A stretch of DNA of 36,868 nt from a virus (lineage: Duplodnaviria > Caudoviricetes): IMG/VR virus record IMGVR_UViG_3300023173_000043, positions 1 through 36,868 of that record; one strand, 5' to 3'. A model generated the notes under the pieces. The model did not search any database. It was not told where the DNA came from and saw nothing but the letters and a program-made list of their open reading frames with translations. Below are positions 8,164-34,044 of the stretch, one piece after another. Position 1 is the stretch's first letter. The number at the start of each line of letters is the position of its first letter. The translations under genes were made by a program, and so were the position numbers.

Positions 8164-9012
8164 ATGGCTGACAGAAAAGATCGATATCAACGTATCGTTG
8201 ATCTTATATTCAAAGCAATGGAGACGCCTGAGTCTTGGCAAAAGACCTGGCAATCCATGTCAACACGCCCCCGAAATCATGTCAGTGGACACAAGTACAC
8301 AGGCATGAACGCCATAACTTGCATGGTGGACATGGCAATTAACGAGTACAAGGACGGACATTACGTCACTTTCAACCAAGCAGAGCAGTTAGGTCTGTCA
8401 GTTAAAGGGCAGAAAGCAACGCCTATTATCTTTATGGGCAAAGCAAAAGATAAGAAGTCAGATGATCCAGAAAAGACTTACAAGTTTGCCAAGATTTACA
8501 ACTGCTGGAACATCAACAAACTAGGGCTCTATCTTCCAGAGCCTGAGATCAAACCCAACAAACTAGAAGCTCCGCACGTTATAGCTGACGCTCTCTGCGT
8601 AGCAGTAGAGAATAATGCAAGCTATGACCCATGCTATATCCCAAGCATTGACACCATCAAAATGCCGATGGAGGGACAGTTTGAGCGAGAGCATCACTAT
8701 CAATCTACCTTCTACCATGAGTGTGTCCATGCAACTGGCGCAAAGAAAAGGTTAGATAGGAAGATAGAAAATCCATTCGGGTCTGAGCTCTATGCTATCG
8801 AAGAGTTAGTGGCAGAGATAGGCAGTGTCTTGTTGTGTGCTGATCTGGGTATCAAATATGAGATTCAGAATCATGCAAGCTATCTAAATAGCTGGAAGAA
8901 AGCTATCAAAGAAGACAGTAACATACTGGTTAAGTCAGCAAGAAAAGCACAGAACGCCGTTGATTATATCCATAGCCAGATGGATCTAATGAAGCAACAA
9001 AATGCGGCGTGA
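8164..9012 (+). CDS. ardC: ArdC-like anti-restriction protein (ssDNA-binding N-domain plus zincin-like metallopeptidase)
   Basis: 'WQKTW...PRNHVSGHKYTGMN', 'YVTFNQA...VKGQKA', 'D.I.MP...F', 'FYHECVHATG...RLDR', 'YAIEELVAEIGS', 'HASYLNSW'. Confidence 0.93.
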   Translation: MADRKDRYQRIVDLIFKAMETPESWQKTWQSMSTRPRNHVSGHKYTGMNAITCMVDMAINEYKDGHYVTFNQAEQLGLSVKGQKATPIIFMGKAKDKKSDDPEKTYKFAKIYNCWNINKLGLYLPEPEIKPNKLEAPHVIADALCVAVENNASYDPCYIPSIDTIKMPMEGQFEREHHYQSTFYHECVHATGAKKRLDRKIENPFGSELYAIEELVAEIGSVLLCADLGIKYEIQNHASYLNSWKKAIKEDSNILVKSARKAQNAVDYIHSQMDLMKQQNAA

Positions 9013-14680: not shown

Positions 14681-14789
14681 GGTTTCCCTAGTTTCCCTAG
14701 TTTCCCTGTATTTCAGAGAGGGGGTGGTTAGTGACCACTAACGACCCTTCCTCGGTAAGCCGGGGAAACCGGGGAAACCCGGGAAACCA
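14681..14789. repeat. Inverted sets of 9-bp iteron-like repeats; candidate replication origin
   Basis: 3x GTTTCCCT(A/G) facing 3x (G/C)GGGAAACC, with central palindrome GTTAGTG-AC-CACTAAC. Confidence 0.75.
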
Positions 14790-14823
14790 AACAACGATGC
14801 GGGTTTTAGGAGATGACAAGTAC

Positions 14824-15258
14824 ATGGGAAACAGTTGGGTTATAGACAATAAGGATAAGGCAGAGTTTTTTAAGAACTTTATTGACGATCAGTTAAACCA
14901 AGGTGTCACGATGGTCTACACATTATCGGTGGGATCGCGCACTCAGCGTCAGAATAACGCACTGCACCTTTGGTTTAGGCAGATTGCAACGCTCTTTAAC
15001 GACTCCGGGCAGGAGTTAACTCACCCCCTTGTCCCCACCATGGACATTCCTTGGACAGAGAACATCGTCAAGGAAGTCCTGTATAAGCTCGTCATCAAGA
15101 AAATGTACGACAAGGGGTCTACCACAGGGTTGTCTGCTAAACAGCTCTCTGAGGCCGCTGAGACGCTCTCACGGTGGCTTGCCCAAGAGTGTGGGATATA
15201 CGCCCCGTTCCCCCAGACATTGAAAGACTCGCTTAAATCAGCAGAGGAGGTAGTATGA
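14824..15258 (+). CDS. ninB: NinB/YbcN-like recombination protein
   Basis: 'RTQRQNNALHLWF..IA' and 'STTGLSAKQLSE'; AGGAG RBS. Confidence 0.7.
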   Translation: MGNSWVIDNKDKAEFFKNFIDDQLNQGVTMVYTLSVGSRTQRQNNALHLWFRQIATLFNDSGQELTHPLVPTMDIPWTENIVKEVLYKLVIKKMYDKGSTTGLSAKQLSEAAETLSRWLAQECGIYAPFPQTLKDSLKSAEEVV

Positions 15259-15680
15259 ATATCAAAATCAATGCGGCAGATCGACACTTTAGCAAGTGCG
15301 TCAGGGAAAGAACGGACTACACCTGCCAAGGATGTGGCAAGCAATACCCTCGGGAAAGCACAGGATTGCACTGCTCTCACTACTTCTCACGAGGAAGGTG
15401 GGCTATCCGATATGACAAAGACAATGCCTTTGCTCACTGCTATGGATGCCATAAGAAATACGGCTCCAACCCTGAACACTTTAGGGATCATTACCTGGAC
15501 TGCTACGGCGAAGGAACCCTAGAGCTTCTGAAAGAAAAAGAGAGGGACTTGGGAAGGGCCAAGCGAATGCATAAGGAGTTCAAAGACATTGTTTACCACT
15601 ACCGGGAGGAGCTAAAAGAAATGAAACAGATAAGAACGAAAGGCCATGCCGGATGGCTAGACTTTGTATCGTGGGATTAA
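15255..15680 (+). CDS. ninG: NinG/Rap-like HNH-type nuclease
   Basis: 'D..FSK.VR.R...CQGCG...LHCSHYFSR....IRYD..N..AHCYGCH'. Confidence 0.8.
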   Translation: MNIKINAADRHFSKCVRERTDYTCQGCGKQYPRESTGLHCSHYFSRGRWAIRYDKDNAFAHCYGCHKKYGSNPEHFRDHYLDCYGEGTLELLKEKERDLGRAKRMHKEFKDIVYHYREELKEMKQIRTKGHAGWLDFVSWD

Positions 15681-15682
15681 CG

Positions 15683-18600
15683 CTATCTTGGCTTTCTTTC
15701 TAGCAAACGCTCAGTAATCTGCTCTGTAGTTTCAAATCCAACTAGATCAGAAGCATTCCTGATACCCCTTAGAGACTGCTTAACAAAGGGGAGTGCGTCA
15801 ATGACAGGCTCTCGAAGATACCTGCTACCTGTCATAGCCCCGAGTGTTCTCTCTGCCACATCGTAAGGCCTGTCAAGCACAACAGGACGAGAACCCTCTA
15901 AAAATGTACTAATCCATCCATCTTCTTGTATTCTGCCCCATTGATAATCATTAAGACCAACGGTATTCATGGTCAGCAATGATGCCCACGCATCACCGTA
16001 ACCCCTAACCATTCCTCCGATGCTGGCATTACCATCACCAAACAAGAACTGTCTACCCTCATTGATAACCGCAAAACCACCAGCACCCCACAAAGCATAA
16101 CGCTTAAGAAAGCCCACAGCTTTATCAACCTCACCTCTCCGAAGGTTATCCACAACCTCACGCAGAGCAAGAGCCTGTTGCTTGATGACAAAACCACGCA
16201 ATGCCCACAAGCCCCGAAGGTCTGGATGCCTAGCCCATGCCGCTGGCCTACCAGCAGATGAGATAAGCTGTTGTTGGCCCAGCGCGGCGACTAATAACTG
16301 CTCAATCAGGTCTGCTTGCTCAGGAGTATAGGCATCAAAGTCCTTGCCATGTTTAAGTAATCCTTTCTTGATTGCAGATAACTCTTGCGGAGTAAAGTAA
16401 AAGCCCCACATATCAGCAAGGTTATCTTCTTTAGCCAGCTTGATCGCGCTATTCCACGCAGTGTCCATAACACCACGCTTACCTACTCGGTCAAAGGCCG
16501 CAAACAAAGACCCCTTCATGGCAAAGTCCGTCAGGTTCCTCATGTTAGAAGCCAGCTTATGCATCCTTCCTCGATCTACAGCAAGGGATTCATTTATCCT
16601 ATTAACAAATTCTCCGTAGGTCTGGTTGTTTAAGCCCATCCTCTGAAGATCTAGTGGGCTCTTAGTAATCGCATCATCTAGCATCTCTCTTGAGCCAAAC
16701 TTGGCGGCGGATAATGGAACGTCAGCCAGATTCAAGATCGCAGACATAGGACCAGCAAGAGTGGTTAGATAGGTAAAAGAATTGAGTGCTTGCAATAAGG
16801 GATGCGGGGTTCTGGAGGATCCCGTTATGTTTTGAGTAATAAGGCTTATCGCATACTCAGCCTTGTCAGCATCTATCCCTCGGCGAATAAGATCATCCTG
16901 CCAAGCCTTCATAAATTCTTCGGGAGTCATGGGAACTAACTGACCCTTCTTATTCTTCTTTAGATTGGTTGGTTTAAAACCAGTCATCCTAGAAATCTGA
17001 TACAACTTCTCCAGGTTAAACGTGCGCTGGATGTCAGTCAGAATAGGATTCTCATAATCATCAGGATTAGGACGCTTTGCCTTGCGTCTCTGATTAACTC
17101 TATCATTTAGATAACTACCCCGGCTTCTTCTCTTCAGCCCTGAATCCGCTGGCAGTTGCGTCCACCAATCATCTTCAGCCTCAATCTCCTCCGGGGGGAT
17201 CTTTTCTTTTTGCTCGTCAGCCATCTTCTTTGCGGCGGCTTTATTCAGGCGCGTTGCGCCATAGGTTACATAGGGATCGTATTCTGCTCCGCTAATCGCC
17301 GTCATGTTTCTTCTGTTCTTTCGCCCTGACCAAGCAATGTATTCCATTAGCGCATTGATTTGTTCTTCATCCAGCTTTCCGGTCATCAAGCGGCGAAGCT
17401 CACTCAGGGAAGTAGCATATCCCTCTCTACCCTTAAGCCCTTTAGATAAAAAGTTAGCAGAGAAATCAAGATAGATTCCCTTGATCTCTTTATCTGTTTC
17501 CATTCTTTGGATGACAGGAGCCAACCTTTCGATAAGTCCAGTTTCATCCATCTCTTTATTGATGGTTCGTAGCCAGGTCTCATCTATTCGCTGATACAAA
17601 GCTCCAAGCCGGGGGCTTACCTCGGCCATAATGGTATCGCTTACGCCACGAAGCCATTCATTGTAGATACCTTTGAAGCTAGCCTTTAATCCCTGCCATA
17701 CCTCACCGACGTTGGTAGCATCACGAAGCCTTGGTGCACCAACAATAGAATCATCGACATTATCAAATGGCCTATCAGCACGGAGGTCACTGAAGACACG
17801 ATTGTAGTCAGAGTTGGGATCTATTTTTTCTGCAATCGACTCAACTTCAGGCGTTCTTTTTATCGACTCAACTTCAGGCGTTCTTTTTGGTGTTGACCTG
17901 CCTCCAAGCATTCCTACTGGCTGTTGCTCCGGCTGGCTTTTCGGCTTTTGCTTTGGCCTTGGCTGGCTTTCTCTGATCTTTTTCATCACAAAGCCGCCAG
18001 TGCTATTGGGCACATTTTCAGCAAACCCTGCGGCCTCAAGCCTATACATTAAAGGAGTTATGCGTTCTCTATAGTCAATACCGAGGATGGTTTCTGATAG
18101 TTTATCTTTGCTAGTATTTCTATTTTTGTTTAGCGTTATTCGATTAAATGTCCCACCAACAGGAATATCATCAAAGTTTCTTGCAAGATCTCTGGCAAGC
18201 TCATCTTTCAATACATCATCTGCACCGGGATCTAAGCCGTCCCAATCTCTAAACAAAGTATATACATCATCATAACCATCTGGCGTTATAAAACGTTCAG
18301 GCACATGACCGTATTTTTTTCTAGCCGCTTCAACTTGTGATTCTTTTTTCTGTGGCTCAGGCCGAGGTTCGGGTCGAGGTTCAGGTCGAGGTTCAGATCG
18401 AGGCCTAGGCTGAGTCTCATATCCATATTGAGCTCTACTACCTAAGTATTCTCCAAATGAATTAGAGGCTGATGATTGGCCGCCTAATTGATTTGTTTTT
18501 GATGCTTGACTGTTGGCTGAAACCTGCTTTCTCGCCTCGTATTGCCGAACCTCTCTTAGTTTCTGGGCTTGCTCATAGGCTTCTTCACTTTGCTGTGTCA

Positions 18601-20665
18601 CCTTGTGGTTAAAGCCTGTGGCATCAACAGTTTCAAGTGAGTCCCGACCAACAGCAAACTGAGACTTTCTGCCATTAACAAGCTGAACCTGTACCCTTCC
18701 GTTCTCTAACTCTCCAAGAACTCTGACCGGCCTCAGGTCTCCCTTATTTGTTCTGTATAAAAGGATAGCTCCGGGCTCTACCTGCTGTTCAATCATATCT
18801 GGATCTACACGATTGTTACCTGTCTTTGCGCCGGGACGAGAGGCTACGCTAGGGTCAAAGATCCTGCCGACAACAGTGCCTACCGTACCGCCAAGAGCCG
18901 CCATTGCCGCCCTCTCTTCTGCGGTACGCCCCGACCCAGCGCCATAGGCAATACCTTCAACGCCTCCGGTAGCCATGTTGCTAAGCCCGTACTTGGCACC
19001 CTGCCTAGCTAGTGCCGTGCCAGTAGCAATGCCAGGGACAAGCTCTTGATACAAAGCACTTACAGGGTTTTCCGTACGATACTGATCCATTTCATTACGA
19101 ACTTCGCCAAGGATGTCAGAGTAAGACCTGTCTCCAAGCAAAGATCTAACCCCGGCTTCAGCCTCATCAGCTAATGCAAAGGTTGCACCTTGAGCAATGT
19201 TTCTTAAGCCGCCGACCAGTATTTTATTCTGCTCGCTCTGCCGTCTTGCCTCTATAGCACGAAGGTCGTCATCAGTAGGCATGAATTCATCGTATAAAGA
19301 TGAATCATCTGTAACTTTTATCGATGGAGATGGGAGCCTTTCGGCTAATTCCTCATCGGTCGGCATAAAGTCCTCATAATTTAGCGGGGCTTTAACCTCT
19401 GGTATGCCCTTACGCTTTTCAGCCGTAACTTCTACCTCTTCCAGCGCAGGTAAATCAAAGGCAGGATCTCCTGTTATTATGCTAGGAGGCGGTGGCCTTA
19501 TGCCCTTACGCTTTTTAGCAGTAACTTCCACTTCGTTTAAGGGAACCCTTATCCCATCACGTTGCTCAGCAGTAACCTCTATCTCCTCTAGAGGAGGCAG
19601 GTCATAATCTGGATTCCCTGTTATCAGCTTTGGGGGCGGCGGTCTAATGCCTTTACGTTTCTTAGCAGTAACCTCAACAGGATTTAATGGCTGTCTTATT
19701 CCATCGCGTTTCTGAGCGGTAACCTCAACCTCTTGCAAAAAAGGGAGATCAAAGTCTGGATTCCCTGTAATTATTTCCGGTCGAGAAGGTCTGAAGTTAG
19801 GGGTTGGTTTCTTTTCTGCGGTGACCTCTACCTCGTTTAAAGGTGGTCTTATTCCATCACGCTTTTGCGCTGTTACCTGTATTTCTTTTAGCCACTGGTT
19901 TGGATCAGCTTTCTTTTTTTGAGCCTCAACTACAATATCCTTTATGACTAAACCAATGGGCACTTTTCTTTTTTGAGCAGTAACGATCACCTCCTCTAAA
20001 GGAGGAAACTCAAAGTCTGGGTTGCCAGTCCTTAGCTTTGGGGGCGGTATATCTTGCGGCCTTAGCTCAGGCTTTCTTGTTGCTGTAACCTCTACCTCTT
20101 TAAGTGGCGGAAGTTTCTTTTTGGCTGTGACTTCCACCTCTTTGAGCTTTGGATTTATTTCTTCAGCAAATGTTCCGACTACTTCTCTAGCGTCTTCTAC
20201 GCTAGTCAAAGCCCTGTTCCCTGCTATACCTTCATAATTGCTATCACCAGATGTAGTAGGGAGACCTGCCCACTCTTTTGCTAGCTCATTAATAAGGTTC
20301 TCAGTAAAATCTCCTTTGCCTTTTTTAGACCTTCTGATCCTGTCATCAATAAGGACATCAGCCATAAGGTCTTGGGTCTCTTCATCAAACAGCCTGTCAT
20401 CTTTAAACCATGACGGCTTTCTTCTCTGAAGATCCTCAAGAGTCTTGTTGATGATTTGGTATTTGCCAGCGGCAGACTGACCACCACTTTCAATCCGCTC
20501 ACGTTGCAACTCCTTGACCTCACCAATAGTCATCTCGGTGAGATCAACGGTGTCGCCTCCATGAAGCACATTGTATCGGTTGTCACTCTCGAGACTTCCA
20601 ATCCAGTTTCTAAGGGAGTCGTAGTTTTCTTTTGGTGCTGGAGCTCTACTCATAAGAAATGCCAA
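15683..20665 (-). CDS. Large internal virion/DNA-ejection protein with N-terminal lysozyme-like domain and TonB-box-like repeats (true start possibly ATG 20653)
   Basis: N-terminal 'ES...YN...DLTEMTIGEV...SAAGKYQII..TL...F....QD...LAKEWAGLP' (lambda-R/GH104-like muramidase); DNA-transfer-protein-like 'QGATFALADEAEA'; last gene of the structural operon. Confidence 0.85.
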   Translation of the reverse strand: MAFLMSRAPAPKENYDSLRNWIGSLESDNRYNVLHGGDTVDLTEMTIGEVKELQRERIESGGQSAAGKYQIINKTLEDLQRRKPSWFKDDRLFDEETQDLMADVLIDDRIRRSKKGKGDFTENLINELAKEWAGLPTTSGDSNYEGIAGNRALTSVEDAREVVGTFAEEINPKLKEVEVTAKKKLPPLKEVEVTATRKPELRPQDIPPPKLRTGNPDFEFPPLEEVIVTAQKRKVPIGLVIKDIVVEAQKKKADPNQWLKEIQVTAQKRDGIRPPLNEVEVTAEKKPTPNFRPSRPEIITGNPDFDLPFLQEVEVTAQKRDGIRQPLNPVEVTAKKRKGIRPPPPKLITGNPDYDLPPLEEIEVTAEQRDGIRVPLNEVEVTAKKRKGIRPPPPSIITGDPAFDLPALEEVEVTAEKRKGIPEVKAPLNYEDFMPTDEELAERLPSPSIKVTDDSSLYDEFMPTDDDLRAIEARRQSEQNKILVGGLRNIAQGATFALADEAEAGVRSLLGDRSYSDILGEVRNEMDQYRTENPVSALYQELVPGIATGTALARQGAKYGLSNMATGGVEGIAYGAGSGRTAEERAAMAALGGTVGTVVGRIFDPSVASRPGAKTGNNRVDPDMIEQQVEPGAILLYRTNKGDLRPVRVLGELENGRVQVQLVNGRKSQFAVGRDSLETVDATGFNHKVTQQSEEAYEQAQKLREVRQYEARKQVSANSQASKTNQLGGQSSASNSFGEYLGSRAQYGYETQPRPRSEPRPEPRPEPRPEPQKKESQVEAARKKYGHVPERFITPDGYDDVYTLFRDWDGLDPGADDVLKDELARDLARNFDDIPVGGTFNRITLNKNRNTSKDKLSETILGIDYRERITPLMYRLEAAGFAENVPNSTGGFVMKKIRESQPRPKQKPKSQPEQQPVGMLGGRSTPKRTPEVESIKRTPEVESIAEKIDPNSDYNRVFSDLRADRPFDNVDDSIVGAPRLRDATNVGEVWQGLKASFKGIYNEWLRGVSDTIMAEVSPRLGALYQRIDETWLRTINKEMDETGLIERLAPVIQRMETDKEIKGIYLDFSANFLSKGLKGREGYATSLSELRRLMTGKLDEEQINALMEYIAWSGRKNRRNMTAISGAEYDPYVTYGATRLNKAAAKKMADEQKEKIPPEEIEAEDDWWTQLPADSGLKRRSRGSYLNDRVNQRRKAKRPNPDDYENPILTDIQRTFNLEKLYQISRMTGFKPTNLKKNKKGQLVPMTPEEFMKAWQDDLIRRGIDADKAEYAISLITQNITGSSRTPHPLLQALNSFTYLTTLAGPMSAILNLADVPLSAAKFGSREMLDDAITKSPLDLQRMGLNNQTYGEFVNRINESLAVDRGRMHKLASNMRNLTDFAMKGSLFAAFDRVGKRGVMDTAWNSAIKLAKEDNLADMWGFYFTPQELSAIKKGLLKHGKDFDAYTPEQADLIEQLLVAALGQQQLISSAGRPAAWARHPDLRGLWALRGFVIKQQALALREVVDNLRRGEVDKAVGFLKRYALWGAGGFAVINEGRQFLFGDGNASIGGMVRGYGDAWASLLTMNTVGLNDYQWGRIQEDGWISTFLEGSRPVVLDRPYDVAERTLGAMTGSRYLREPVIDALPFVKQSLRGIRNASDLVGFETTEQITERLLERKPR
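17835..17888. repeat. Perfect 27-bp in-frame tandem duplication (KRTPEVESI x2)
   Basis: ATCGACTCAACTTCAGGCGTTCTTTTT twice. Confidence 0.9.
19412..20146 (-). repeat. 11 coding repeats of L-x-E-V-x-V-T-A-x-K-R with Pro-rich spacers
   Basis: LKEVEVTAKKK, LKEVEVTATRK, LEEVIVTAQKR, IKDIVVEAQKK, LKEIQVTAQKR, LNEVEVTAEKK, LQEVEVTAQKR, LNPVEVTAKKR, LEEIEVTAEQR, LNEVEVTAKKR, LEEVEVTAEKR. Confidence 0.95.
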
Positions 20666-20696: not shown

Positions 20697-22487
20697 TTAA
20701 ATTCTCCACGCCGTATCTTGAGAAAGATATTCGTCTTGAACCGGGTCTCTATTCCTGCCAAGTTGTTTAATGCGTTCTTCCCAAAGACGATCAAACCTGT
20801 CTTTGTCAAACTCTTCTCCTCTAGCGGCTGATGCTTCCTGAGCCTGTTTTAATTTCTCCTTATATTTTGAGCCTGTACCAAGAGCCATGTCGCCTTCAAT
20901 TCGATTCCATCTATCGGACTTTGCATCAGCTTCCTTTTGTTCTCCTTTCAGGCCGCCACTGACAAGTCCTCCATTGAGCTCGGCATCAAGATCTTCTCTC
21001 ATTTCATCGTAAAGAGTTGGGAACTGATACTCCAATGCGGTGAATAAAGCTTGATTAATTAGCTGGCTTGCCTCCGCTCTACCCTCTGGCGTTGACTGGT
21101 CTATGGCGTTGTACTTTTCCATGATGCTCTCGCCAGCTTTATCCAGGGTGCTATACATTTGTTTGTTGATAGCCTTGCTTAAGGTTTCTGCGTCTTCATC
21201 GCTCCAAGAGGATGGATCAAAGATAGCCGCAAACTCCTCACTGTCTTTCCTAAGACCAGAAAGAACCTTATTTATATCCATCTGCAACTGCTGGGGTACT
21301 GCCTGAGCCAGAGATGCTAGATGCTTGCTTACCTCACCAGCATATTTTTTATTTACTTTTCCAACACCGGCATCCCCTAACAACTCTCTGACCTGATTTA
21401 CTTCGCTCACATACTTTTGATACAGAGTATTGTTTGGGAAGTCGCTTCTTTGTAGCGGGATGTTTTCTGATATCTTGTCACCCAAGCTCTGCCTTGCTTC
21501 TTGCAGTTCAAGCTCAGCTTTTTCTCTGGCCATTGCCGCATCATAGGACGCAAGCACAGAACCCCTTGCCGCTGTTACCCTTGAGCCAATGTCCTTTGTG
21601 TTGTATGGCCTGTACTCTTCCGCACCAAACCTCCCTTCGTACTCGCTCGTTAATGCATCAAGATCTGACTGTGCTTTACTTGCAACTTCGGGATCTTCTG
21701 AAAGAGTAAGGCCAATAAGGTTGGTAGCTTTGGTATTAAACTCGCTTTCAAGGCGAGCGTGCTCAGCTTCCATAATTTTGGCATGCTCGGTTGCAACCCC
21801 TGCTATAGAGGCTTGAATAAACGGTTGATAGTCTTTGTTTATCTGACCATAGTTTCCATCAGTTACTGTATCTGCTCGCCTTTTGTAATTCTCAAACGCT
21901 GTATCACCTAGCTTTCCAGGTGGAAAAATAGCCCTCGACAATCGCTCATTTTTCTTAAGGGCCGCGTCAATCGCTAGCTGATTGGCTTTAATTTGCTGTT
22001 CTTGAGCAATCCAAGAATTTTCTCTTTCCTCTAATCCTTGTCGATAGTCAGTGCCCTCACGCCCTGTGCCGCCATACTTAGCACCCTGACCACCGTAAGT
22101 ATTCATTTGGGAATAGATACCTTCCAATGCCTTTTCCGCCCCAGCCCTTTGCTGTGGGTCAAGATCATTCTTTCTAAGCTCTCGTGTTAGAAGGTCTGCG
22201 CTATTCTGATAAGCTGACATCTTGGTAGTCCACGCTTGCTTCTGCTGTTGGACGCCAAGATCTGTAGCCATCTGAGCATACTTCTGAGCATCTTCATGGT
22301 TCCCATTTCGTCTGGCCCATTCAGAATAGGCCACAAGACTTTTCGGATCGTCGGTATCTAGCTTTGGTGCAGAAAGATCTCTGATAGTCTGGTGCGTCCA
22401 ATCGTATGCCTTGCCCATCTCACCAACATCACTGGCAATCTGAGACAACATCCCCGTTAAGTTTGCCGCTTGTGCTCTTCCTGACAT
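20697..22487 (-). CDS. Probable internal virion/ejection protein
   Basis: 596 aa, helical, between the small and large ejection-like genes; TAAGGAG RBS. Confidence 0.65.
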   Translation of the reverse strand: MSGRAQAANLTGMLSQIASDVGEMGKAYDWTHQTIRDLSAPKLDTDDPKSLVAYSEWARRNGNHEDAQKYAQMATDLGVQQQKQAWTTKMSAYQNSADLLTRELRKNDLDPQQRAGAEKALEGIYSQMNTYGGQGAKYGGTGREGTDYRQGLEERENSWIAQEQQIKANQLAIDAALKKNERLSRAIFPPGKLGDTAFENYKRRADTVTDGNYGQINKDYQPFIQASIAGVATEHAKIMEAEHARLESEFNTKATNLIGLTLSEDPEVASKAQSDLDALTSEYEGRFGAEEYRPYNTKDIGSRVTAARGSVLASYDAAMAREKAELELQEARQSLGDKISENIPLQRSDFPNNTLYQKYVSEVNQVRELLGDAGVGKVNKKYAGEVSKHLASLAQAVPQQLQMDINKVLSGLRKDSEEFAAIFDPSSWSDEDAETLSKAINKQMYSTLDKAGESIMEKYNAIDQSTPEGRAEASQLINQALFTALEYQFPTLYDEMREDLDAELNGGLVSGGLKGEQKEADAKSDRWNRIEGDMALGTGSKYKEKLKQAQEASAARGEEFDKDRFDRLWEERIKQLGRNRDPVQDEYLSQDTAWRI

Positions 22488-22497
22488 GACCTACTCC

Positions 22498-23340
22498 TTA
22501 AAATATACCGTCAAACATACTGCCAGCATTATCCAACACAGAGTCATATAGGTTGCCCTCTAGCTCTGATGCCGCCTTCATTGCATTAACACCAACTTGA
22601 GATCCACCCAGCGCCATCTGTGCAAGATACTGAAGACCTGTTAGCTGTCCTGTCTGTGCTCTATCCGCGTTATTACCACCTAATTGCATCAAAGCCATCT
22701 GTTGTTGCATGGGCAGGAATGATGTCTGGTAATTCTGATTAGCCATCTGACCAAACCCCTGAGCCAATGCCCCTTGATTCATCATCTCCTGCTGTGCCTG
22801 TTGCATAGCCGCTACCGATGCTTGGTTGCTGGCCTCTGCCCGAGCCCTAGCCATAGCCGCGTCCTCAGCAGTGCCACCAAACTGGCTACCACGAATGCCG
22901 CCTCTGCCCATAGCGTACTCACGTGCTTGCTGTGCGGCCTGAGCACGATTAAGAGCGGGGTTCTGCATAGCCATCATGCGGTTGTAAATATCCTGCTCTC
23001 TACCCGCCGTGCTCTGCATGGCGTTGCTCATAGCTTGAAGACCGGCGTCATTATATGACCCAGCTGAGTTCCCCATCATCGGGTTCTGACCAACACCAAG
23101 GTTGATTGAGCCATTTGCACCAACAGTAGAAGTCCCAAGGTTAGAGGTAACACCGTAACCCTTAAACTGAGATTCTTGGTTTAGGTCGGTAAAGTTTGGA
23201 TCATTAACTCCCCCAAGCTCATAAAGATTGCTTACCAATGAGTCAGGTTCATTAGGATTTCCAAGCTCTCTGATCTGATCTGCATTCTGCAATCCCTGCT
23301 GGATTGCGGCCATTGATGCAAGTGCGCCAGGTACGCTCAT
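22498..23340 (-). CDS. Probable small ejection/pilot protein
   Basis: G/A/Q/M-rich 280 aa directly after tail tubular B. Confidence 0.65.
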   Translation of the reverse strand: MSVPGALASMAAIQQGLQNADQIRELGNPNEPDSLVSNLYELGGVNDPNFTDLNQESQFKGYGVTSNLGTSTVGANGSINLGVGQNPMMGNSAGSYNDAGLQAMSNAMQSTAGREQDIYNRMMAMQNPALNRAQAAQQAREYAMGRGGIRGSQFGGTAEDAAMARARAEASNQASVAAMQQAQQEMMNQGALAQGFGQMANQNYQTSFLPMQQQMALMQLGGNNADRAQTGQLTGLQYLAQMALGGSQVGVNAMKAASELEGNLYDSVLDNAGSMFDGIF

Positions 23341-23350
23341 CTCTTTCTCC

Positions 23351-25144
23351 TTAAGCGATCAAACGACCGACTAATGTGTTAATAGAAATCTGTTGCATAG
23401 ACATCTTCTCTCCTATGATGTCTGCGCTAAACCCTATCCTAAGCATCTCACCCGTCCCGTTAAGGGCAGTGGTTGATGTGTAGAATGAGTCACTAATGTT
23501 GTTGTCTGGTTTAGCTTTTAACCTTCGGCTGTACTTCATGTCAGATCCAAAGCCCCAGGTTGCATGGATATTGTCTGAAGTTTTTGAGTGAAAGCTGTAG
23601 CTAACAGACTTAGGAATCACGGTCTGCATGATGTTCCCGGTAAAATTAAGCACTGTGCTTTCATAACCAAACGTGTAAGGTCGTGGCTGTTCGTATCCAA
23701 AGTATCTAAGAACACCACGGTTATCCCTACCTGCAAGCAACGCCAAATCCTTTATTGATGTTCTTACGGTAACTCCGTCATAGAAATCACAGTCAGTCCA
23801 TCGAGTAGTTTTTAGTCCGCCTGTCAATGAAGGTTGTCCTAACTGAAAGACGTAGGCTTCTCGAGTATCAGGAAACAAACACACTGCTAGATTCCTAGAG
23901 GGCATATGAAACAGCTTGACCATGTCTCGCTGGCTATCTATGAGCTCACGGATCACTGTCGCCACGTTCATGCTTGGCTCTGCGAGGGGGCTAGACTTTT
24001 CTTGAATTACCCTGCCAAGAGAACGTACGCCCAAAGAGTCAACGAAAAGATGATCGCTACCAATGTTGCACATAGCATCCTGATTAACCAATCCCACATC
24101 ACTAATAGCGTCCTCGAGCTTAAGACCCTGCTCGCCAGAAGGATCTCCTTGTGCGCCTGAGTAGATAAGAATTGAGTACCTGCCGAACACAATCAGGAAG
24201 CCGTTGTGTGCGGCTATGCCCTGTATCTTGTCCCCACCGTTGGGCCAGTACTCGGCAACGTCAATAATACCTGCCGTATTCTGGTCATCGGTCATCACTG
24301 CTTTACCGTCATACCACTGCTCAGGGACTAGCAGGTCAGAGTAGTAGATGGTCTGATAGTCGTCGTTTACTCCAGACACCCACAATCTACCGTAGGCGGC
24401 ACAAGCTACGTCACCGTTTATCTTCTCTGCAAACAACTCATTGTCGTCTTGCGGCGGCAGATAGTTAGACTTGGCTGATAGTGGCTCGGCTGTCGCGCCG
24501 TCATAGACCATGACCTCTTCATCCTTAGAGAAGACATAAATGCTGTCCTTGAAAGGGACTAGCTGTGCGTTTGCGATGCCGTTCTTTGGGGCTATCTCGG
24601 GGATCGTGATGATCTGATTCCCCTCGATCTTAAACCCAATGTATCTGTCATACTCCACTACAGCCGCAGGAGATATCTCAGGCACTTGCATGAAGTTAGG
24701 ACGCTGTGCTGTCTCAAGTGCGCCGTTCCACTCGTCGACATTCCACTCGGCCTGATTCCACTCAGTCTTCCCTCTAACGCCCTGATAGCCCAAACCCATG
24801 AGCCCAAAGGTCATATCCTCTGCTATCTCCTCATTGACTGACCTTGCAGACCACTCAGAGAACCCCCACGTAGCCTCACCCCACTCAGCCCTGATTGCTG
24901 ACCGGATAACCGCTTCCGTCTCAAGGCGACACATCCGAACAACATCATAAGATGGCTCAGCAAAGTCCACGTTATTAATAAAATCCGCAAAGGCTTCGCG
25001 AGACGTTATCCTCCCTATCCTATCCACCACAGCGTTATCGGCTCTTAAGGCAAACTCTGTCCCTCCCTGAAAGGGAGACTGCTCACTGTTTAACCCTTGC
25101 CCACCTGGGGCCGGTATGCCAATTTGATTAAGCTGTTGCGCCAT
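23351..25144 (-). CDS. Tail tubular protein B / P22 gp10-like nozzle
   Basis: 'APGG.GLNSE.SP', 'ADNAVVDRIGRI.SR', beta-propeller-like segments 'AYGRLWV', 'HNGFLIVFG', 'IGSDHLFVDSLGVRSL'. Confidence 0.8.
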   Translation of the reverse strand: MAQQLNQIGIPAPGGQGLNSEQSPFQGGTEFALRADNAVVDRIGRITSREAFADFINNVDFAEPSYDVVRMCRLETEAVIRSAIRAEWGEATWGFSEWSARSVNEEIAEDMTFGLMGLGYQGVRGKTEWNQAEWNVDEWNGALETAQRPNFMQVPEISPAAVVEYDRYIGFKIEGNQIITIPEIAPKNGIANAQLVPFKDSIYVFSKDEEVMVYDGATAEPLSAKSNYLPPQDDNELFAEKINGDVACAAYGRLWVSGVNDDYQTIYYSDLLVPEQWYDGKAVMTDDQNTAGIIDVAEYWPNGGDKIQGIAAHNGFLIVFGRYSILIYSGAQGDPSGEQGLKLEDAISDVGLVNQDAMCNIGSDHLFVDSLGVRSLGRVIQEKSSPLAEPSMNVATVIRELIDSQRDMVKLFHMPSRNLAVCLFPDTREAYVFQLGQPSLTGGLKTTRWTDCDFYDGVTVRTSIKDLALLAGRDNRGVLRYFGYEQPRPYTFGYESTVLNFTGNIMQTVIPKSVSYSFHSKTSDNIHATWGFGSDMKYSRRLKAKPDNNISDSFYTSTTALNGTGEMLRIGFSADIIGEKMSMQQISINTLVGRLIA

Positions 25145-25869
25145 TAGCGTGTGCTCCAGACATATTCAAGCTCAGAGTTACTAACGTCCCACGAGATAGC
25201 GTCAGAAAGATATTGCTTAGCTAAGGCAAATAATTCTCCGCTTGTCTGACCTCCAACCTCACCCCGCTCACGGGATGAATATGCCAAGGCATAGTACATA
25301 ACAGGGTCAATAGGTAAGCGAATAAGGTCGTCGTCATTCTTCATGGGGGCACTCACCTTGTATCCCTCCATCAAAATGGTCTGCACTCCCGCCGGTTCTC
25401 CGTTGTACTCCGCCTCGGTGTACTCACTGGCCGCGTATTCAGAAACGTCCGCAGTTGAGCCAACGTATTCTTCTCCGGGGACAGGCCAAAACCTAACGGT
25501 GATCTCATTGTTATCGCTGAAGCTGGGCGCGTAATACTGAGGAGTGCCTATCTGCTTCTTCTGTCTTGAGATCCAGCGTTCATTTGCTTCCTTCAAGCAG
25601 TTGCTAGTGCCTGCCCATCGTACTGTATAAATCGAGGCAGACTCATTTGAATCCGGTATGGGGTATCCAGCCACATCAAAACCTAAATCGACAAGCCATA
25701 TCTTTCTTTGAGCATTCCATGTGTGGGACTTATCAACAAACCGCCTTGCGTCATTCACAAACCTACACACAATCTTTTGCTGTGGGTCATTGTGTTCGTC
25801 ATTGACGGATGTGATCTCATCCTCGCGCATCCTAACCAATACCTCGTTGACCATCTCTAAATACGTCAT
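25144..25869 (-). CDS. Tail tubular protein A / head-tail adaptor
   Basis: Start at 'MTYLEMVNEVLVRMRE' (ATGA overlap at 25869); 'FVNDA', 'G.PQYY', 'FWPVP'. Confidence 0.8.
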   Translation of the reverse strand: MTYLEMVNEVLVRMREDEITSVNDEHNDPQQKIVCRFVNDARRFVDKSHTWNAQRKIWLVDLGFDVAGYPIPDSNESASIYTVRWAGTSNCLKEANERWISRQKKQIGTPQYYAPSFSDNNEITVRFWPVPGEEYVGSTADVSEYAASEYTEAEYNGEPAGVQTILMEGYKVSAPMKNDDDLIRLPIDPVMYYALAYSSRERGEVGGQTSGELFALAKQYLSDAISWDVSNSELEYVWSTR

Positions 25870-28121
25870 GCGAGCATTCCCATTCCTTTTGTCATATCGC
25901 TGTATAGCTTTTCTCTTGCGCGTTGCCACTTGTCTATCTTCATATACTTAAACAGCGGCCCCCACTCAGGGTCTTCGCTTACCTTGTTTCCACTTCCGAC
26001 ATTGCCAGAGAGAAGACCTGCCGCCGCACCAGCACCAGCAGGAAGCATCCACTCCGCGACACCTGAACCACCACCAGCGGCAGGTAAAGTCCACTCTCCG
26101 TAACTGTTACCACTACCCGTGCCTAATTCTTGATCTGATCCAGAGTTAGAGCCAGCAATTGTTGAGCCCTCCTCTGAGGACGCTAGATAGTTTTCAAGCT
26201 CCCGCTCATACTTCGCTCGCTGTTCTGGGTCTGTCTCTCTCAGGATAAGCTCGTAGATCTGCTGTGCCGTGACATCTCCGCCAAACAATCCACTAGAGCC
26301 AGATGGCAACGCGTTAAGATCCCCTGCGTACCGCTCATCTCCCTGCGATAAGGCTTGGTCTTCTCCCCCAGATGCGTCTTGATCTCCCTCCGATGAGTTC
26401 TCTGCTCCTTCTGACGATGTTGAATCCGACGAGGAGGATGATTCCGACTGCGAGGGATTGTCAGAGGTTGACCCTTCGTTAGCCTTTGTTGGTGGCGGAG
26501 TTGTTTCTGGCGTCCCGCCATCCTCAAGAGGAAGCTGAAGAATCCCGAATATCTGAGAGTTTGGATCTCTTGGCGCATCAGTAAAGGAGTAACGCTCATC
26601 AAGCCCTTGATTGGCTGTATTAATAAACTCGTAATTACTTTGATAAAGCTCTAATAATCTTTCGTGATCATTAGGACGCAATGCATTTACACTCCTTGAT
26701 CGTAGGGATTCATACTGAGCCATCTGCTCTTCCGACCAGCTGGACCAAGTGCCGTCGTCTGCTTGAGCATTGAGCCAATCAAGAGCCTCTTGGTCTGTTT
26801 CAGTCCAAGTCCCAAACTCTTCTTGCCTTCGCTCTAGCTGAGTTAGCTCTGCCCACTCCTCGCCATAACCATCATTACTAAGACTTAACAGCCCATTGTT
26901 GTAGCCAACGCCTGAAGTCCACTCATTGAAATAACCGCCAGGATTTGACTTAAATGCCTTAACCGTGGTGCTTGTGCCATCTCCAAAGTCAATAACACCA
27001 TTCTTATCAGCAAAGAATTTATTGCCTTGAGGATCAACAATGACAAACTTTGCCGCACCTAATACGGGATCTAAGATATTGTCGTTGAGCCATCCGGTTC
27101 CGACAGGGTTTACACTATCAAATAGACCGCCAGGGCCAACAAGCCCCGCTAAGTCAGAGCTATTCTCATATATTGTGCCTTCGTACTGAGGTAGCGCACT
27201 CTGTCTTGCATCGGAAAAGTAGTCCCCAACAACATTAATGCCGCCGGATATAAGACCATTAATAGCGGCTTGCTTTAGATCAATCTCACCATCAATAGCT
27301 TGATTGATTAACGTGCCACCACCACCAGTGATAAGACCCTCAACAGCAGACCCAGGGACTATGCCTGTCCAGTCCTGAAGACCCCCTGTCAGACCGCCTG
27401 TAAGGGCTCCAGAAATCACCCCCTCAGCAGTAACATCACCGCTAAGTGCTCCCGTTAAAAGCCCTGTAGCGGCTCCCTTGACTGCTCCTGTGCCAGCGGC
27501 ACCAAGACCCAAAGAACCACCAAGGGCAGTCCCTGCGGCACCTCCTAATCCAGCCCCTATTGTCCCGATAATTGCGGCTTTGGCGACATCATTAATCCCA
27601 AGCCTTGAGTCTTCGTTGATATCGGTACGCATATACCCATTGCCAGTCCACGTATAGGTATCGCCCTTATCGTCTACAATCGTGGGCGCAATGCCGTACT
27701 GATTCATCAATGCCTGATTCTCTTCAGACATTAACCATTGCTGGTATCCGCTCTGACGAGCGTTGTAGTTAGACTGCCTTAAGTCATTAACGTCAGTAAC
27801 CTGACCTGACCCTCTACTAAGATCTTCACCCTCTCTAAGTATTTGAGAAGGAGCCCTTTGGTCTATGCCCTCAGAAGTCCACCAAGACTGGTTGCCAAGC
27901 ATATCGTTGGCTTCACCCATGTAGGCAAGGTAGTTATCAAAACCGCCAAACGTCTGCTGAAGGTGTGGGTCATTGTTATATTGCTCCTGAAGCTGAGCCT
28001 GTGTTGCCGTTCCCCCAAAGTTAGGGGCCGCGCTGTCATCAGCTTGAGCCGCACCAAAGAGTCCAGACTGGCTTCTGGACTGCTCTTGATTAGCAATAAT
28101 GTTATAGATTGTTTCAGACAT
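25866..28121 (-). CDS. Gly-rich putative virion protein with a long hydrophobic G/A segment
   Basis: 751 aa; GxxxG-rich stretch 'AAIIGTIGAGLGGAAGTALGG...'; S/E low-complexity linker. Confidence 0.7.
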   Translation of the reverse strand: MSETIYNIIANQEQSRSQSGLFGAAQADDSAAPNFGGTATQAQLQEQYNNDPHLQQTFGGFDNYLAYMGEANDMLGNQSWWTSEGIDQRAPSQILREGEDLSRGSGQVTDVNDLRQSNYNARQSGYQQWLMSEENQALMNQYGIAPTIVDDKGDTYTWTGNGYMRTDINEDSRLGINDVAKAAIIGTIGAGLGGAAGTALGGSLGLGAAGTGAVKGAATGLLTGALSGDVTAEGVISGALTGGLTGGLQDWTGIVPGSAVEGLITGGGGTLINQAIDGEIDLKQAAINGLISGGINVVGDYFSDARQSALPQYEGTIYENSSDLAGLVGPGGLFDSVNPVGTGWLNDNILDPVLGAAKFVIVDPQGNKFFADKNGVIDFGDGTSTTVKAFKSNPGGYFNEWTSGVGYNNGLLSLSNDGYGEEWAELTQLERRQEEFGTWTETDQEALDWLNAQADDGTWSSWSEEQMAQYESLRSRSVNALRPNDHERLLELYQSNYEFINTANQGLDERYSFTDAPRDPNSQIFGILQLPLEDGGTPETTPPPTKANEGSTSDNPSQSESSSSSDSTSSEGAENSSEGDQDASGGEDQALSQGDERYAGDLNALPSGSSGLFGGDVTAQQIYELILRETDPEQRAKYERELENYLASSEEGSTIAGSNSGSDQELGTGSGNSYGEWTLPAAGGGSGVAEWMLPAGAGAAAGLLSGNVGSGNKVSEDPEWGPLFKYMKIDKWQRAREKLYSDMTKGMGMLA

Positions 28122-33150: not shown

Positions 33151-34044
33151 TTAACCTGCAACCCACATGACAACACCGTTGTCTTCACGGTAAACGTCCT
33201 TACCGTAAAGCGTGTCGGCAGTCATCAGGTCTGCAAGGTACTCTTGCTTGTACTGAGTCTGTACACGTACACCCAACTGCTCAGCAAATACCAGAGCGTC
33301 AGTGTGGAACAGAAGACAAGGCTTCTCGCCAGAATTATTGGCGGTCAGGTTGGTAGAGACATAAATGTCTACACCATAGAGCTCACCAATCTTCCCGTTC
33401 ACAACACCACGACCATTTACAAAGTCCGAAGACACGTACCGGTCGATGCCCATGATTTGATTACGAGCCGCAGGCGGGATCACCAGCTTACGGTTGTCCA
33501 TAGGTACATCGTTGTCGTCGAGGACCTGAATCGCATCACGGAAAGCCGCGTCCGAAAAATCCCCTGCTGAGCCGTCAACGGAAGGAACAACTAAACCCGT
33601 ATCAGTACAGTGACCTTGAGTAGTCCACTCGGTCAGCGCAACTTCAATAAGGTCTGAATCAACCTTACGAGCTAACGCATAACCTGCATCCTGAGTGTAA
33701 AAGCGACGAAGACTGCTGAGTGCTTGCACATCAACGATATCTTCAATCAGCTTTGAGTACTCCCAATGCTGGTCAATAACGATTACCTTCTCCTCTTCGG
33801 TGTTGGCAATCAGGGTTACTTGCTGTTCAGCTTTCTTCTCGTTCGGATCAGAGCGAAATGGCTTAGGAATATGGATGGTGTCACCCTTCTTCCCAGTCAT
33901 CTTCATCTGACGTACAAGAGGCTTCATGACGAGCGAGTGCTCGTACTCAGCAATGATTTCGTCACTCCAAATTTCTGGAATGAATGTCTTAGCACGGGTC
34001 TTAGTGACTGCGTCACCCTTTGCCCAAGTCTGGTCTAAAGCCAT
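33151..34044 (-). CDS. Major capsid protein (P22-coat-like HK97 fold)
   Basis: 'FIPEIWSDEI', 'GKKGDTIHIP', 'AGYALARKVDSD', 'NGKIGELYGVDIYVS', 'DTLYG'; follows the scaffold gene. Confidence 0.92.
   Translation of the reverse strand: MALDQTWAKGDAVTKTRAKTFIPEIWSDEIIAEYEHSLVMKPLVRQMKMTGKKGDTIHIPKPFRSDPNEKKAEQQVTLIANTEEEKVIVIDQHWEYSKLIEDIVDVQALSSLRRFYTQDAGYALARKVDSDLIEVALTEWTTQGHCTDTGLVVPSVDGSAGDFSDAAFRDAIQVLDDNDVPMDNRKLVIPPAARNQIMGIDRYVSSDFVNGRGVVNGKIGELYGVDIYVSTNLTANNSGEKPCLLFHTDALVFAEQLGVRVQTQYKQEYLADLMTADTLYGKDVYREDNGVVMWVAG

Follow-up and report, generated by a model that had tools for sequence, protein, structure and literature searches.

The DNA analysed here (the window) is a stretch of 36,868 bases that makes up the whole of the tailed-phage virus record IMGVR_UViG_3300023173_000043 and is estimated to be complete. 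The last gene of its structural operon encodes a large protein, probably an ejection (internal virion) protein, which carries directly behind a lysozyme-like domain an array of eleven short peptides resembling the TonB boxes of TonB-dependent transporters. The open reading frame (ORF) has 1660 amino acids (aa) counted from TTG; translation more likely begins at the ATG of residue 5 (20653). The protein consists, in this order, of lysozyme, array, conserved membrane-proximal segment and helical C-terminal domain:

15683..20665, minus strand: the whole protein, a large gp16-like ejection (internal virion) protein with fold matches, whose gene closes the structural operon
20171..20665, minus strand: N-terminal lambda-lysozyme-like peptidoglycan domain, aa 1-165 (phrog_90 endolysin, E 1.8e-11)
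19412..20146, minus strand: array of 11 TonB-box-like motifs with Pro-rich spacers, aa 174-418 (pattern search)
20114-20146, 20072-20104, 19967-19999 and 19913-19945, minus strand: copies 1-4
19859-19891, 19808-19840, 19706-19738 and 19655-19687, minus strand: copies 5-8
19559-19591, 19508-19540 and 19412-19444, minus strand: copies 9-11
19271..19375, minus strand: another short motif, Y-x-[DE]-F-M-P-T-D, present twice, then helices (low-confidence model for the helices)
18851..19228, minus strand: family-conserved Gly/Ala-rich segment, aa 480-605 (placed in 115 of 120 family members)
15686..17785, minus strand: conserved all-helical C-terminal domain, aa 961-1660 (119 homologues; model pLDDT 76)

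The first-pass annotation of this DNA had described eleven copies at 19412..20146, separated by Pro-rich spacers and preceded by a lysozyme-type domain. A search for the pattern L-x-E-[VI]-x-V-T-A-x-[KR]-[RK] returned exactly that span and that count, with Pro accounting for 38 of 255 residues (15%), and a looser pattern applied to all six frames of the window found the same 11 copies and no further ones. The motifs start at aa 174, 188, 223, 241, 259, 276, 310, 327, 359, 376 and 408, so that start-to-start spacing varies from 14 to 35 aa. One copy reads exactly LEEVIVTAQKR, and two are deviant (IKDIVVEAQKK and LNPVEVTAKKR). The later copies form a higher-order repeat of 147 bp (49 codons) between 19488 and 19768. 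When two of these 49-codon units were compared, 18 codons were identical, 21 differed synonymously and 10 non-synonymously. As synonymous differences dominate between the units, the array appears to be old and to have been kept as protein. Recent slippage as its origin was rejected on account of this synonymous divergence, and a function of the repeats at the DNA level was rejected because conservation is at the protein level. The FoldIndex of the spacers is near zero and their disorder is plausible from composition; an autonomous folded repeat domain was also considered and rejected, as nothing supports it. The array gave no match to PDB sequences, NCBIfam, a protein collection (913-2905 aa only), cultured phages or the ESM Atlas. 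With phmmer, aa 1-428 were compared to cluster representatives, and among the 150 matches listed all came via the lysozyme domain, none of them with an array.

The lysozyme-type domain proved to be lambda-lysozyme-like by profile, as suggested by profile match together with an invariant, presumably catalytic Glu (Glu26, invariant in 19/19 aligned sequences). Used as a profile, it matched the PDB entries 1am7 and 3d3d at E 1e-4, which we take to be lambda lysozyme, a lytic transglycosylase; the label for such enzymes is presumably GH104. Glu26 falls outside the stretch aligned to 1am7. Compared with viral models, the C-terminal domain gave 115 matches at E<=0.001, among them internal virion proteins C/D (E 5e-7 to 7e-5), and its top row in the PDB was the PhiM1 ejectosome 8vb2, a weak match at E 0.015. 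Inspection revealed no signal peptide on the protein, and no plug or barrel family matched it. Folded from the single sequence, aa 1-472 gave a model of pLDDT 40 that carried no information, the lysozyme domain included.

The genes upstream of the carrier are arranged as follows:

25144..25929, minus strand: head-tail adaptor (PF24175 SU10 adaptor, E 6e-11)
23351..25144, minus strand: likely tail nozzle (position; phrog_5107)
22498..23340, minus strand: small ejection-cassette protein without motif, gp14-like in position only
20697..22487, minus strand: middle ejection-cassette protein without motif or family match, gp15-like in position only

Downstream of the adaptor lie the likely nozzle, whose homologue in a relative also matches head-closure and tail-appendage families, and then genes of 280, 596 and 1660 aa; judged by sequence, this trio has the layout of the ejection cassette of short-tailed phages. 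The small cassette protein has a homologue in 73 ORFs of 78 related loci. The carrier is the largest and last gene of the three-gene cassette that follows adaptor and nozzle, and its predicted helical C-terminal fold resembles internal virion proteins. Gene order and fold thus agree with the ejection protein proposed in the first annotation, and we infer a T7-gp16-like ejection protein, an assignment that is well supported.

To compare the repeats with TonB boxes, we built a positional profile from transporters. Fifty plug-domain loci, from 20 relatives and from G001, a Gammaproteobacteria assembly that contains 21 plug-domain matches and TonB genes, were reduced to 40 by removing 10 near-duplicates, and unsupervised motif finding was applied to the 45 residues upstream of the plug. 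Of the 40 sites, which give the consensus LEEIVVTATRT, a few are probably not true boxes. Eight of the 11 repeats score 12-23.9 bits on this profile and so fall within the range of the true sites, whose leave-one-out median is 16.9. None of 20,026 positions in the other ORFs of the window reaches 12 bits, and composition-preserving shuffles (n=5000) yielded on average 0.008 sites of at least 12 bits and never more than 1. The match extends to the leading Leu and the trailing basic residues of transporter boxes, and repeats and boxes present, in the same register, an alternating hydrophobic face at positions 1, 4, 6 and 8.

The residue after the first acidic one is Glu in 9 repeats, Asp in 1 and Pro in 1, while FepA and FhuA have Thr. 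The enteric-type pattern, Ser/Thr after the first acidic residue, which we take to be that of PROSITE PS00430, is absent from the repeats, whereas they follow the consensus of the non-enteric pre-plug boxes. Nor are they a single N-terminal box before a plug or translocation domain, but 11 internal copies behind a lysozyme. The resemblance proposed at first therefore holds for the pre-plug motif of non-enteric transporters and fails for the enteric type, where Glu replaces Thr. Because the profile misses BtuB and scores FepA and FhuA low, the repeats would mimic the non-enteric class, whose TonB binding is assumed from position. Complex prediction of one repeat (4-row alignment) with the TonB C-terminal domain of G001 (35-row alignment) gave 0.29 against a mark of 0.32, in a run in which the controls stayed unfolded, and was counted neither for nor against binding.

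The same peptide was then sought in other phages. When viral contigs were scanned as DNA for single motifs, 12 loci came up, two of them the window phage itself, and the 10 non-self loci all lie in frames of 305-1349 codons; a reversed-order control scan gave 5 loci, all in frames of 22-106 codons. Nine of the 10 fall within genes for a tape measure, ejection-cassette protein, tube cap or tail tube or within a gene next to a hub, L183 being the only one without a link to an entry gene, and none is a transporter:

L184: tape measure
L190, 263-1456, minus strand: T4-like baseplate tube cap
L193, 4971-5885, plus strand: tail-tube-family protein
L188: virion protein near a hub gene
L185, L186, L192, L194 and L189: ejection-cassette genes

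As L186 and L192 look identical and L185 is related, these five ejection-cassette loci represent about three kinds. Nineteen ORFs were chosen by eye from the loci of two tandem scans. Nine match tape-measure, hub, tube-cap or virion families (four tape-measure matches are weak), seven have no family match, six of these lying beside tail or virion genes, and three are non-virion proteins with low-scoring sites. Some tape measures, a baseplate hub and a tube cap carry the motif in tandem, with 2-7 copies, so that the longest non-self array found has 7 copies and the 11-copy array is the longest found here. A metagenome tandem scan returned the array itself and one two-copy small gene in an ejection-cassette-like cluster. 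The carriers in other phages show no similarity to the window protein beyond the motif, and would have in common a periplasmic destination. Comparing motif arrays from three other loci with cultured phages gave nothing meaningful. Tube-cap, tail-tube-family or hub proteins with the motif are also encoded at L237:2-1255(+) and L251:5559-7220(-); among these two, L190 and L193, the motif occurs twice right at the N-terminus, as in colicins, and contractile-tailed phages may dock their tube tip on TonB.

On balance, we favour the view that the repeats are TonB-box mimics, which would provide an accessory, avidity-based tether of the lysozyme-bearing front of the ejection protein to the inner membrane. 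The C-terminal domain of TonB works in the periplasm. By analogy with T7 gp16, the protein would be packaged and ejected N-terminus first; lysozyme and array would remain periplasmic, and each repeat would join the TonB C-terminal domain as a beta-strand. Such a tether, whether or not TonB adds proton-driven strokes, could help to extract the protein from the nozzle, keep the lysozyme against the cell wall and move the channel to the inner membrane; DNA would be taken up via the conserved ejectosome and not the array. Box peptides are reported to bind TonB at 9-36 uM by a beta-augmentation that is mechanically strong (PMC5413942, PMC7593965); as single boxes bind only at micromolar strength, repetition would supply avidity. 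In T7, the N-terminal transglycosylase of gp16 and the adjoining extended segment are described as periplasmic (PMC8954989). A wider version, which we regard as doubtful, holds that phages of all three tail types repeatedly gained TonB-box mimics in the proteins that enter the periplasm first (ejection, tape-measure, tube-tip and hub proteins), that strokes of host TonB-ExbBD extract these proteins and pull the channel onto the inner membrane, and that the 11-copy array acts as a stepwise protein ratchet.

The first-pass annotation had suggested surveying homologous ejection proteins for the array, and this survey was run with a profile made of the 40 transporter sites and 50 motifs of other phages. 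There are 119 homologues, in 114 of which the end of the linker could be placed. Their linkers hold 16 sites in 16,143 positions, compared with a shuffle mean of 0.96, and there are 2 in 101,375 conserved positions. In the homologues too it is this linker that holds the motifs, and they follow a LysM, GH24-type or lambda-type domain. Carriers make up 10 of the 50 proteins whose N-terminus is long (LysM, GH24-type, lambda-type or SLT-type domains) and 0 of the 64 short forms; on the tree, independent pairs are too few to relate the motif to a long N-terminus. In a FastTree tree, which carries long-branch warnings, the 11 carriers need 10 changes, and 136 of 500 shuffles are as low, so that they show no extra clustering. 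Copy number across the family ranges from 0 to 11, and the lysozyme-plus-array module is an accessory within it. The N-terminal cargo of P0001-P0119 is freely swapped (none, LysM, GH24-type lysozyme, SLT or lambda-type lysozyme), a further cargo being an unnamed domain that starts M-x-R-x-D-G-S-x-K-S. In two family members (L079:644-3697(+) and L081:226-3288(+)), one strong motif (17.1 bits) lies not in the gp16-like protein but in a Gly-rich protein of 1020 aa, upstream of the adaptor position.

Several results of this survey and of the preceding comparisons weigh against TonB-box mimicry. Only 10 of the 114 homologues have the motif, with 1-3 sites each, and 104 have no site. The sister group of the window protein, six proteins 57% identical to it in the C-terminal domain (support 100), is without lysozyme and array; at one of its loci, L006, where gene order is kept and the partner genes are present without an array, no site of at least 11 bits was found in the 8 kb upstream. 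In P0007, P0108 and P0116 a Pro lies inside the motif strand, and Pro substitutions are reported to disable TonB boxes (PMC9586334, PMC5413942). Position 5 is Glu in 8 of the 11 repeats, compared with Val, Ile or Thr in 34 of the 40 transporter sites, and of the E. coli transporters the profile misses BtuB, whose box is proven, and gives FepA 7.3 and FhuA 3.5 bits. Within the 49-codon units, motif and spacer do not clearly differ in conservation (8/33 and 11/36 non-synonymous codons, respectively). The raw counts of the single-motif scan are 10 loci against 5 in the reversed control, and the 120 loci (2 self) of the two tandem scans are mostly collagen-like, other repeats or out of frame. Finally, the sole cellular link of the phage is a 1.1-kb contig in G001.

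Among the alternatives, it is rather unlikely that the repeats are a "molecular tape" for phage partners (tunnel, nozzle or core) or for TolA or a chaperone, their likeness to boxes arising from convergence on beta-addition. Residues 157-228 of T7 gp16, an extended segment behind the transglycosylase, cement gp15 and occupy the same position as the array (PMC8954989), and the Pro-containing variants and the Glu at position 5 do differ from transporter boxes. Against this, the carriers in other phages (tape measures, hub, tube cap and tail tube) have no gp15-like partner in common, close relatives retain the partner genes without any array, and the match reaches from the first Leu of transporter boxes to the basic residues at their end. 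Much less credible is an array that is neutral or purely a spacing linker grown by internal duplication: it is optional in the family and its copy number varies, but synonymous differences outnumber replacements between units two to one, the match to a host motif is far above shuffles and the motif recurs in unrelated entry proteins.

Two further alternatives keep TonB as the partner. In the interpretation preferred at first, an obligatory proton-powered ratchet, TonB would grip successive boxes and drag protein and DNA inward. The repeat spacing, 5-13 nm when extended, is within the 20-nm extension modelled for BtuB (PMC5413942), and colicin B is reported to carry short single-stranded DNA through FepA in a process that needs its own box (PMC8546555). 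The array contour, in contrast, is about 88 nm for a genome of 12.5 um, which makes import by 11 handles geometrically implausible, and the motif, which an entry ratchet would be expected to keep as a core part, is missing from 104 of 114 homologues, the nearest ones included; filamentous phage binds TolA and yet is imported in motor mutants unable to use the proton gradient (PMC10424213). On the grounds of scale and of patchy distribution in the family, we consider this ratchet, and with it the drawing in of DNA, improbable. We are equally sceptical of an ejected array acting as a decoy which, by sequestering TonB, temporarily blocks TonB-dependent phages or bacteriocins after infection, as had also been proposed. 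TonB action in cells can be blocked with a free Ton-box pentapeptide (PMC5413942), pIII in the periplasm ties up TolA and reduces phage uptake (PMC10424213), and 11 copies per chain would confer avidity. As the protein has no signal peptide by inspection, however, only ejected copies would reach the periplasm, which limits this proposal; these would be few, four per virion if the phage is T7/PhiM1-like (PMC11440229), and the peptide also occurs singly in structural tail-tip proteins, which fits docking better than titration.

As for the rest of the protein, the Gly/Ala-rich segment at aa 480-605 would be the part that crosses the inner membrane; it contains no strongly hydrophobic helix, no 19-residue window exceeding 1.2 in hydropathy. 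The duplicated F-M-P-T-D linker motif precedes it, and a loose F/I-V-V-P-x-[DES] pattern stands at the equivalent place in 17 of 114 homologues; this is possibly a family-specific docking motif. The later Pro-rich linkers include an exact 27-bp duplication at 17835-17888 (KRTPEVESI twice) and an EPRP repeat at 18357-18403.

By family matches, the window encodes portal, large terminase, major capsid, tail fibre and an SU10-type adaptor. Other features are:

33151..34044, minus strand: major capsid protein (family matches)
25866-28121, minus strand: protein of 751 aa without family match, hydrophobic and Gly/Ala-rich over one stretch and with a tail rich in Ser and Glu, possibly a fourth ejected protein
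8164-9012, plus strand: ArdC-like anti-restriction / polyvalent metallopeptidase gene
14731-15680, plus strand: NinB-like and NinG/Rap-like genes, convergent with the end of the ejection gene

Among the 21 ORFs scanned, none matched an integrase or a DNA polymerase, Rfam gave no match anywhere in the window, and there is no exact terminal repeat of 11-60 bases. Loci L001, L005 and L321 are 99.96-100% identical to the window and were counted as the same phage, and searches of cultured phages found no cultured relative. The G001 contig is a weak hint at the host and may reflect mis-binning; the major capsid protein of the phage has no match in G001. A search of 401 sampled genomes of the same class gave 1 strong match, G001 itself, and two further weak ones (E about 4e-12).

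The array touches on the question of what powers the extraction of ejection proteins and their assembly across the envelope before any transcription. The need of phages for TonB is usually ascribed to the receptor's own box. If the reading as TonB-box mimics is true, a phage-encoded box array would directly tie virion proteins to the host Ton motor, a short motif would predict the type of host (TonB-rich Gram-negative bacteria), and arrays of this kind would be natural multivalent TonB ligands. As the array is optional within one family, natural pairs with and without it exist for comparison.

With TonB-dependent transporters (Pfam Plug PF07715), the repeats have in common the consensus L-E-E-I-V-V-T-A-x-R; unlike the transporter boxes, the phage copies are internal and in tandem (11), with no signal peptide before and no plug after them, and mostly have Glu at position 5, unlike the enteric D-T type. 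Rabsch et al. in 2007 reportedly suggested one potential TonB box in the pb2-like tape-measure-type tail protein of the TonB-dependent phage H8, a single tentative site compared with the 11 copies here. The best scores on the transporter profile, which is weak on enteric boxes, are 7.4 bits for H8 pb2 and 4.7 for T5 pb2. Searches of open-access papers found no description of phage virion proteins with TonB boxes.

The tetrameric ejection protein of PhiM1 and T7 gp16 are likewise encoded by the last and largest gene of a three-gene cassette and combine a peptidoglycan domain, an extended linker and a helical C-terminal body; the window protein differs in that its linker is a long repeat array. 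A search for the term found no mention of TonB in the T7 (PMC8954989) and PhiM1 (PMC11440229) papers. The pIII of filamentous phages is also a pilot protein that docks in the periplasm on a motor protein anchored in the inner membrane (PMC10424213). It differs in using TolA/TolQR and not Ton, and a folded N1 domain in place of linear repeats, with no proton-conducting motor needed, and it is an earlier example of a phage protein that docks on a motor whose energy it does not use. In group B bacteriocins such as pesticin and colicin B, a foreign protein brings its own TonB box, as is proposed here, and pesticin joins such a box to a phage-lysozyme-like domain and brings this peptidoglycan-cleaving domain to the periplasm (PMC3390615, PMC8546555). 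These bacteriocins have one N-terminal box and enter via a host transporter, whereas the array places many internal boxes behind the enzyme of a protein that would enter via its own tail channel. Because of its position and of the lack of the enteric pattern, we do not class the array as a canonical TonB box, yet it may work like the box of a group B bacteriocin.

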